A stretch of DNA of 540 nt, from the sequence record AH001321.2; one strand, 5' to 3'. The notes beneath the pieces were generated by a model, which saw nothing but the letters and a program-made list of their open reading frames with translations, ran no database searches and was not told the origin of the DNA. Below, one piece after another: positions 1 to 540 of the stretch (position 1 is the stretch's first letter; the number at the start of each line of letters is the position of its first letter). Made by a program: the position numbers and the translations under genes. Origin of the DNA: a phage.

Positions 1-13
1 TGTATTGATTCAC

Positions 14-30
14 TTGAAGTACGAAAAAAA
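14..30 (+). repeat. Copy 1 of a TTGAAR-N-ACGAAAAA direct repeat
   Basis: Seen in sequence: ttgaagtacgaaaaaaa at 14-30, matching 158-174 apart from a 1-nt indel and one substitution. TTGAAG followed by CGCGAAAG recurs at 472-485. Confidence 0.4.
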
Positions 31-220: not shown

Positions 221-320
221 NNNNNNNNNNNNNNNNNNNNNNNNNNNNNNNNNNNNNNNNNNNNNNNNNNNNNNNNNNNNNNNNNNNNNNNNNNNNNNNN
301 NNNNNNNNNNNNNNNNNNNN
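221..320. other. Assembly gap: run of exactly 100 N, true length and content unknown
   Basis: Seen directly: 100 consecutive n characters. A round 100-N block is the usual placeholder for a gap of unknown size in scaffolded assemblies (established convention). Confidence 0.96.
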
Positions 321-471
321 GTGGTACACAAATTTAATCAGTATCGCTACATCAGATTCCTGAACAAACGAGCAAGGAAGCGGCTAAATACCAAACTATT
401 CAAGGTTCAGGCATACCCTAAGTGATCCCCATGTAATGAATAAAAAGCAGTAATTAATACATCTGTTTCAT

Positions 472-530
472 TTGAAGCGCGAAAGCTAAAGTTTTCGCAT
501 TTATCGTGAAACGCTTTCGCGTTTTTCGTG
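472..530. promoter_or_regulatory. Putative cis-regulatory module: dense cluster of CGCGAAA / CACGAAA / TTTCGC motifs in both orientations, including a 17-bp direct repeat
   Basis: Seen in sequence: GCGCGAAAG at 477-485 (+); TTTTCGCA at 492-499 (minus-strand TGCGAAAA); TTTCGCG at 515-521 (minus-strand CGCGAAA); TTTTTCGTG at 522-530 (minus-strand CACGAAAAA). No ORF covers the region on either strand. Function is inferred only from motif density and repetition. Confidence 0.4.
492..530 (+). repeat. Two copies of a 17-bp direct repeat (consensus YTTTCGCRTTTWTCGTG) at 492-508 and 514-530, offset by 22 bp
   Basis: Seen in sequence: ttttcgcatttatcgtg (492-508) versus ctttcgcgtttttcgtg (514-530), 14 of 17 positions identical by hand alignment. 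The second copy ends 10 bp before the window edge, so further copies downstream cannot be excluded. Confidence 0.55.
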
Positions 531-540
531 CGCCGCTTCA

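Follow-up and report, generated by a model that had tools for sequence, protein, structure and literature searches.

A tandem repeat at the edge of a phage DNA record is very probably the R2-R1 pair of MuA transposase sites at the right end of bacteriophage Mu

Close to its downstream edge, a 540-nucleotide stretch of phage DNA (sequence record AH001321.2; the whole stretch is called the window below) carries two similar 17-mers in head-to-tail order. This arrangement raises the questions of what the pair is and whether it opens a longer array that the window cuts off. A sequence-only reading had placed a repeat at 492-530, and we confirmed it there. The copies at 492-508 (TTTTCGCATTTATCGTG) and 514-530 (CTTTCGCGTTTTTCGTG) match at 14 of 17 positions with a start-to-start offset of 22 nt, and in the full 22-nt register (488-509 against 510-531) 17 of 22 positions match. 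In mononucleotide shuffles of the right arm (n = 500), a pair of 17-mers agreeing at 14 or more positions and offset by 10 to 40 appeared in 0.4%, and shuffling of the T-rich last 80 nt alone produced such a pair in 0 of 500. These shuffles reject low-complexity, T-rich composition, which the sequence-only reading had named as the way in which the repeat might be explained away.

The window consists of 220 bases, a run of 100 N (221..320), and another 220 bases. Bases 1-220 correspond to bacteriophage Mu 1-220 and bases 321-540 to Mu 36498-36717, each at 99.5% identity, and Mu 36717 is the final base of the genome. Over its last 80 nt, repeat included, the window is 100% identical to Mu, with the same position, orientation, spacing, and terminal CA as in that element. 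The N run replaces the approximately 36.3-kb phage interior, which in the reference Mu carries the transposase gene A. In E. coli W, both arms were found to span exactly 36,717 bp, i.e., a full prophage. According to the Mu annotation, the gene nearest to the repeat is mom, whose 3' end (last 34 codons and the stop codon) occupies 321..425 on the plus strand, the annotated Mom CDS ending at Mu 36602, which is window position 425.

The window differs from Mu at one position in each arm, and neither lies within the repeat. At position 111, on the outer edge of the L2 site, the window has C and Mu has G, and at position 411, inside the mom end, the window has G and Mu has C. The latter change replaces Pro with Ala at the fifth residue from the Mom C-terminus (...VQPYPK-stop to ...VQAYPK-stop). 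The two differences are both G/C transversions, lie exactly 300 nt apart, and fall outside both R1 and R2. An exact-pattern scan of genome and viral contigs gave no match to the 411 variant, and a scan of genome, viral, and metagenome contigs gave none to the 111 variant; as a control, the exact 50-mer of the Mu right end was recovered from 17 viral contigs, showing that the scan works. BLAST searches among phages and 5,426 complete E. coli genomes returned nothing better than 99.5% identity for either arm. The differences at 111 and 411 may reflect either an unsampled natural variant or an altered sequence.

Three MuA sites are known at each Mu end, L1, L2, and L3 on the left and R3, R2, and R1 on the right (PMC3145075). 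We searched the window with the consensus YMYNWRAARYRCGAAAR (YMyNwRAARYRCGAAAR), as printed in the GenBank record of phage D108, where two features at homologous positions are annotated as a transposase-binding site "based upon homology to Mu consensus." At up to two mismatches, there were exactly six matches in the window against 0.13 expected, a number reached in 0 of 200 shuffles. They lie at 11-27, 116-132, 156-172, and 469-485 on the plus strand and at 492-508 and 514-530 on the minus strand, three per arm, and the final two coincide base for base with the two copies of the repeat. A 23-letter MuA consensus, YGTTTCAYTNNRAARYRCGAAAR, was also tried and rejected; it has one N too many and the wrong spacing, and it gave no match at up to three mismatches.

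The left arm opens with the terminal 5 nt TGTAT (1..5, plus strand), whose 5'-TG complements the cleaved CA-3' of the other strand and which in E. coli W are directly preceded by the host junction. They are followed by the L1 site (6..27, plus strand; 22 nt with a 17-nt core at 11-27), which has no mismatches and is in register with the other sites, by L2 (111..132, plus strand; core 116-132), which has one mismatch and bears the window-specific C at its outer edge, and by L3 (151..172, plus strand; core 156-172), which has one mismatch and is identical to L1 at 17 of 22 positions. In the L1-L2 spacer, there is also an 18-nt direct repeat at 32-69 (CGGGAGGACATTGGATTA and CGGGATCTGATGGGATTA) with 72% identity and 20-nt spacing.

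In the right arm, R3 (464..485, plus strand; core 469-485; no mismatches) has the opposite orientation to R1 and R2, with 6 nt separating it from R2. R2 (492..513, minus strand), whose core at 492-508 is the first copy of the repeat, has one mismatch, is identical to its Mu counterpart, and has an annotated homolog in D108. It abuts R1 (514..535, minus strand; no mismatches) in the same orientation, the core of R1 at 514-530 being the second copy. The arm closes with the terminal 5 nt CTTCA (536..540, plus strand), in which CA-3' (539-540) forms the end used for cleavage and strand transfer and position 540 equals Mu 36717. Both ends have one geometry, a 5-nt stub followed by the outermost 22-nt site, and the two ends are mutually inverted.

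The repeat is very probably (about 97%) R2 (492-513) together with R1 (514-535), the abutting 22-bp MuA transposase sites of attR, the right end of Mu. No observation contradicting the R1/R2 identity was found in the analysis. The Mu attR R1/R2 pair is textbook knowledge, and all the sequence-level features that define it were looked for and found in the window; the repeat is regarded as already known because it appears to be that pair itself. The suggestion of tandem protein sites thereby holds in part: the sites would be bound by a single protein, share one orientation, are about two helical turns apart, and belong to a phage. Its other part, that the sites are those of an iteron-binding or regulatory protein, gives way to the match to MuA sites.

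The sites were also followed across related phages in an alignment of six right ends (the window, SfMu, D108, Mu_3F6, PhiR68_1, and Yersinia vB_YpM_3). Invariant columns made up 21 of 22 in R1 (514-535), all 5 of the terminal 5 nt (536-540), 20 of 22 in R3 (464-485), and 16 of 22 in R2 (492-513), with 3 of 6 in the R3-R2 spacer (486-491) and 12 of 23 in the flank upstream of R3 (441-463). Because the six sequences represent approximately two lineages (Mu/SfMu and the D108 type), this conservation is supporting, not decisive. The D108-type ends (D108, Mu_3F6, PhiR68_1, and vB_YpM_3) have the same R3/R2/R1 layout as the window, and their terminal 27 nt are the same except for one base. In contrast, their R2 differs at 5 to 6 of 22 positions, and in D108 the flanking gene is also different, a D108-specific protein being encoded between mom and the end.

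Counted from core to core, R2 and R1 are 22 nt apart in five of the six right ends; in the D108 record the distance is 21 nt, owing to a 1-nt gap within the inner (GTTT) portion of R2. The D108 record (GQ357916.1, 37188-37225; locus L004, 339-376) also has one extra T in the R3-R2 spacer. In Mu_3F6, a close relative of D108, the extra T is present with the 22-nt core spacing kept, and PhiR68_1 and vB_YpM_3 have neither the extra T nor the spacing change. The spacing change in D108 may be a genuine indel or may stem from a difference in sequencing.

The repeat goes no further than the window edge because this is where the phage genome comes to its end. In integrated copies, homology breaks off precisely behind ...CGCCGCTTCA (window position 540), and in four independent E. 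coli insertions (W/B-766, ST18, S17-1, and APEC E19057) the next 300 nt show 22 to 28% identity. An in-register "third unit" downstream is identical to R1 or R2 at only 5 to 8 of 17 positions in these four contexts. The array had been suspected to run on beyond 540, and it was proposed to count further copies downstream; none was found at up to one mismatch in the four insertion contexts, which is half of the outcome that the sequence-only reading had named as speaking against it. The element has its last base at position 540, and what comes after is unrelated host DNA.

The insertion in E. coli W is flanked by the 5-bp sequence GCCGC at both junctions (GCCGC/TGTATTG... on the left and ...GCTTCA/GCCGC on the right). 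Such a duplication of the target site is what Mu strand transfer should leave behind, Mu being known to duplicate 5 bp of its target (PMC1475752). The annotation of ST18 and S17-1 shows a host gene cut short exactly at the junction (locus position 820 or 821). In these two RP4-2-Tc::Mu donors (ST18, locus L008, 820-1420; S17-1, locus L009, 821-952), the Mu right end abuts truncated host genes, an MFS transporter gene and mhpC. The flanking genes differ between the left and right ends in ST18, and there are two places per record in both ST18 and S17-1, a pattern consistent with rearranged or multiple Mu copies.

Several other explanations of the repeat were weighed against its identity as the R2-R1 pair. 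A chance likeness arising from T-rich, low-complexity DNA would draw on the composition of the last 60 nt, which are T-rich on the plus strand (AT skew of -0.27). However, the rarity of such pairs in the shuffles, the excess of consensus matches, and the retention of the sites across diverged phages make chance scarcely conceivable. The iterons of a plasmid or phage origin, bound by a Rep-type initiator and continuing downstream as an array, would resemble the repeat more closely, iterons being about 17 to 22 bp long and arranged head to tail in a register near two helical turns, as are the two direct copies here with their 22-bp register. The region is also AT-rich, and, in a looser sense, Mu replication does begin at its ends. 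Mu replicates by replicative transposition, starting from its ends after strand transfer. Nevertheless, there are only two direct copies instead of at least three, the next copy upstream, R3, is inverted, and downstream the element ends and gives way to unrelated host DNA in every insertion examined. No Rep-type initiator is annotated in Mu 1-4000 or 35500-36717; the annotated left 4 kb of Mu encodes the repressor, Ner, transposase A, and B. The neighbor of the repeat, where an adjacent rep-type or regulator gene had been proposed as a check, is mom, and MuA is encoded approximately 35 kb away. Unlike iterons, moreover, the repeat occupies the extreme terminus of a genome that transposes, and its sequence is identical to characterized, transposase-bound MuA sites. 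The origin iterons of the sequence-only reading are accordingly very improbable.

That reading had also pointed to tandem response-regulator sites, and a direct-repeat phasing of about 21 to 22 bp is indeed typical of winged-helix response regulators. The repeat might then represent sites for an OmpR/PhoB-type protein or another transcription factor acting on a downstream promoter, and the Mu repressor has been reported to bind Mu ends (PMC3820752). However, we found no promoter-like site on either strand in 321-540, and the DNA downstream differs with each insertion, which leaves no constant gene for the sites to regulate. The sequence is, again, identical to that of MuA sites, and we consider a regulatory pair to be highly unlikely. 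Tandem sites of a eukaryotic kind, mentioned in the same place, were a wrong lead.

A further possibility concerns transcription of mom. The repeat region could, additionally or instead, be an intrinsic terminator of the mom (late) transcript, with hairpins formed between the CGAAA cores. On the plus strand, the segments 479-498 and 505-521 are predicted to form terminator-like hairpins, two where 0.2 would be expected, with energies of -10.1 and -9.3 kcal/mol and z-scores of -2.6 and -2.1, respectively. They lie 54 to 96 nt past the mom stop codon (425), with TTTTT after the second. However, the z-scores are modest, and the fold predicted for D108 is different, with R3 pairing with R1 instead of two local hairpins forming. 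In the D108-type ends, the run of T behind the second hairpin is interrupted (GCGCTTTTCG), whereas the protein-site consensus is kept. The hairpins arise because the sites are inverted (R3/R2) and partly palindromic. No published account of such a terminator was found in the literature searched, and an Rfam scan at an E value of up to 1 identified no RNA family in the window. We regard the terminator as unlikely, and, if real, its role is an extra function, not a rival identity. There is similarly little reason to expect either that the R3/R2/R1 block doubles as a terminator keeping the mom transcript out of host DNA or that this copy is a natural Mu variant (G111C, Mom Pro-to-Ala), and the identity of the repeat is unaffected by both readings.

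Taking the repeat as the R2-R1 pair, its function can be drawn from published work on Mu, from which we infer MuA binding at these sites and cleavage at the CA. Gene A of the reference Mu is located at 1328-3319, approximately 35 kb from the repeat at the other genome end, and the interior is masked (N) in this copy. The A protein has the Pfam domains HTH_Tnp_Mu_1, HTH_Tnp_Mu_2 (I gamma), DDE_2, and Mu-transpos_C, and its residues 77-605 match the chain in PDB 4FCY. Previous studies showed that each end site is occupied by a single MuA monomer and that a stable synaptic complex needs only L1, R1, and R2, R3 being dispensable (PMC3145075). An R-end of about 50 bp with R1 and R2, together with MuA and target DNA, suffices for transposition in vitro (PMC1475752; PMC3362531). 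In the tetrameric transpososome core, one pair of protomers sits on R1 sites and the other on R2 sites, and only two of the four are catalytic, acting in trans (PMC3362531). In 4FCY, the R1-bound chain is catalytically engaged and the R2-bound chain is noncatalytic (PMC9308760; for the role of R2, also PMC3362531).

At the end described here, each site would be bound by one MuA monomer via the I-beta and I-gamma DNA-binding subdomains. R1 and R2 would be read inward from the terminus on the minus strand, starting 5 nt from the terminal CA-3' at 540, and their head-to-tail 22-bp register would set two neighboring MuA protomers on a single end, next to the cleaved CA-3'. R1 and R2 would then synapse with sites of the other end, i.e., with L1 in vivo, aided by L2, L3, R3, the enhancer, HU, and IHF, and four protomers would make up the stable transpososome core. 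The protomers bound to R1 and L1 are expected to cut at the terminal CA and to join it to the target in trans with a 5-bp stagger, and those bound to R2 are likely to be structural.

Transposon ends of a comparable build are known from Tn7 and CAST elements. As in Mu, each of their ends carries multiple repeated sites for a DDE transposase, TnsB, which is distantly related to MuA (PMC9308760). TnsB protomers are arranged as beads on a string, like those of MuA, and catalysis in trans has been modeled for TnsB (PMC9308760). However, TnsB bends the end DNA, whereas the Mu end DNA is straight in 4FCY, and Tn7, unlike Mu, moves by cut-and-paste with TnsA (PMC9308760). The Tn7/CAST sites also differ from those of Mu in having an unrelated sequence and another number and spacing.

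The repeat adds nothing to the biology of Mu, because the Mu right end is among the best-characterized transposon termini and its 50-bp R1-R2 segment is a commercial reagent, the exact 50-mer serving as MuA cargo. The lesson is one of annotation: where a 17-bp repeat with a 22-bp register sits next to the edge of a contig or window, it may mark a transposon end, not an origin. Public phage and metagenome records also contain the Mu 50-mer as part of adapters, and these occurrences should not be taken for Mu-like elements. In the Proteus phage vB_PmiA_PM1 (T7-like, Autographiviridae; PQ065999.1, 41972-42059; locus L005, 563-650), TTGGGTGTTTAACC is followed by a 24-nt, barcode-length stretch and then by the 50-bp R1-R2 end of Mu without a mismatch. 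Since the ONT barcode flank and the 24-nt barcode precede the 50-mer, the stretch is Oxford Nanopore rapid-barcoding (MuA cargo) adapter left untrimmed, and we rejected the 100% match of the Proteus phage as a sign of cross-genus conservation. A CDS annotated as "hypothetical protein" (locus L005, 423-656) runs through the adapter stretch. Many unrelated IMG/VR contigs of metagenome 3300045125 (loci L017, 1-87, and L025, 1-87, among others) carry ...TTCGTTCAGT...TTTGGGTGTTTAACC and the Mu 50-mer approximately 40 nt from the contig end, and the record of Streptococcus phage 36L opens with 29 nt of the Mu R-end (PQ621707.1, bases 1-29; locus L006, 301-329). The contigs of 3300045125 and the start of 36L are likely to represent the same adapter artifact.
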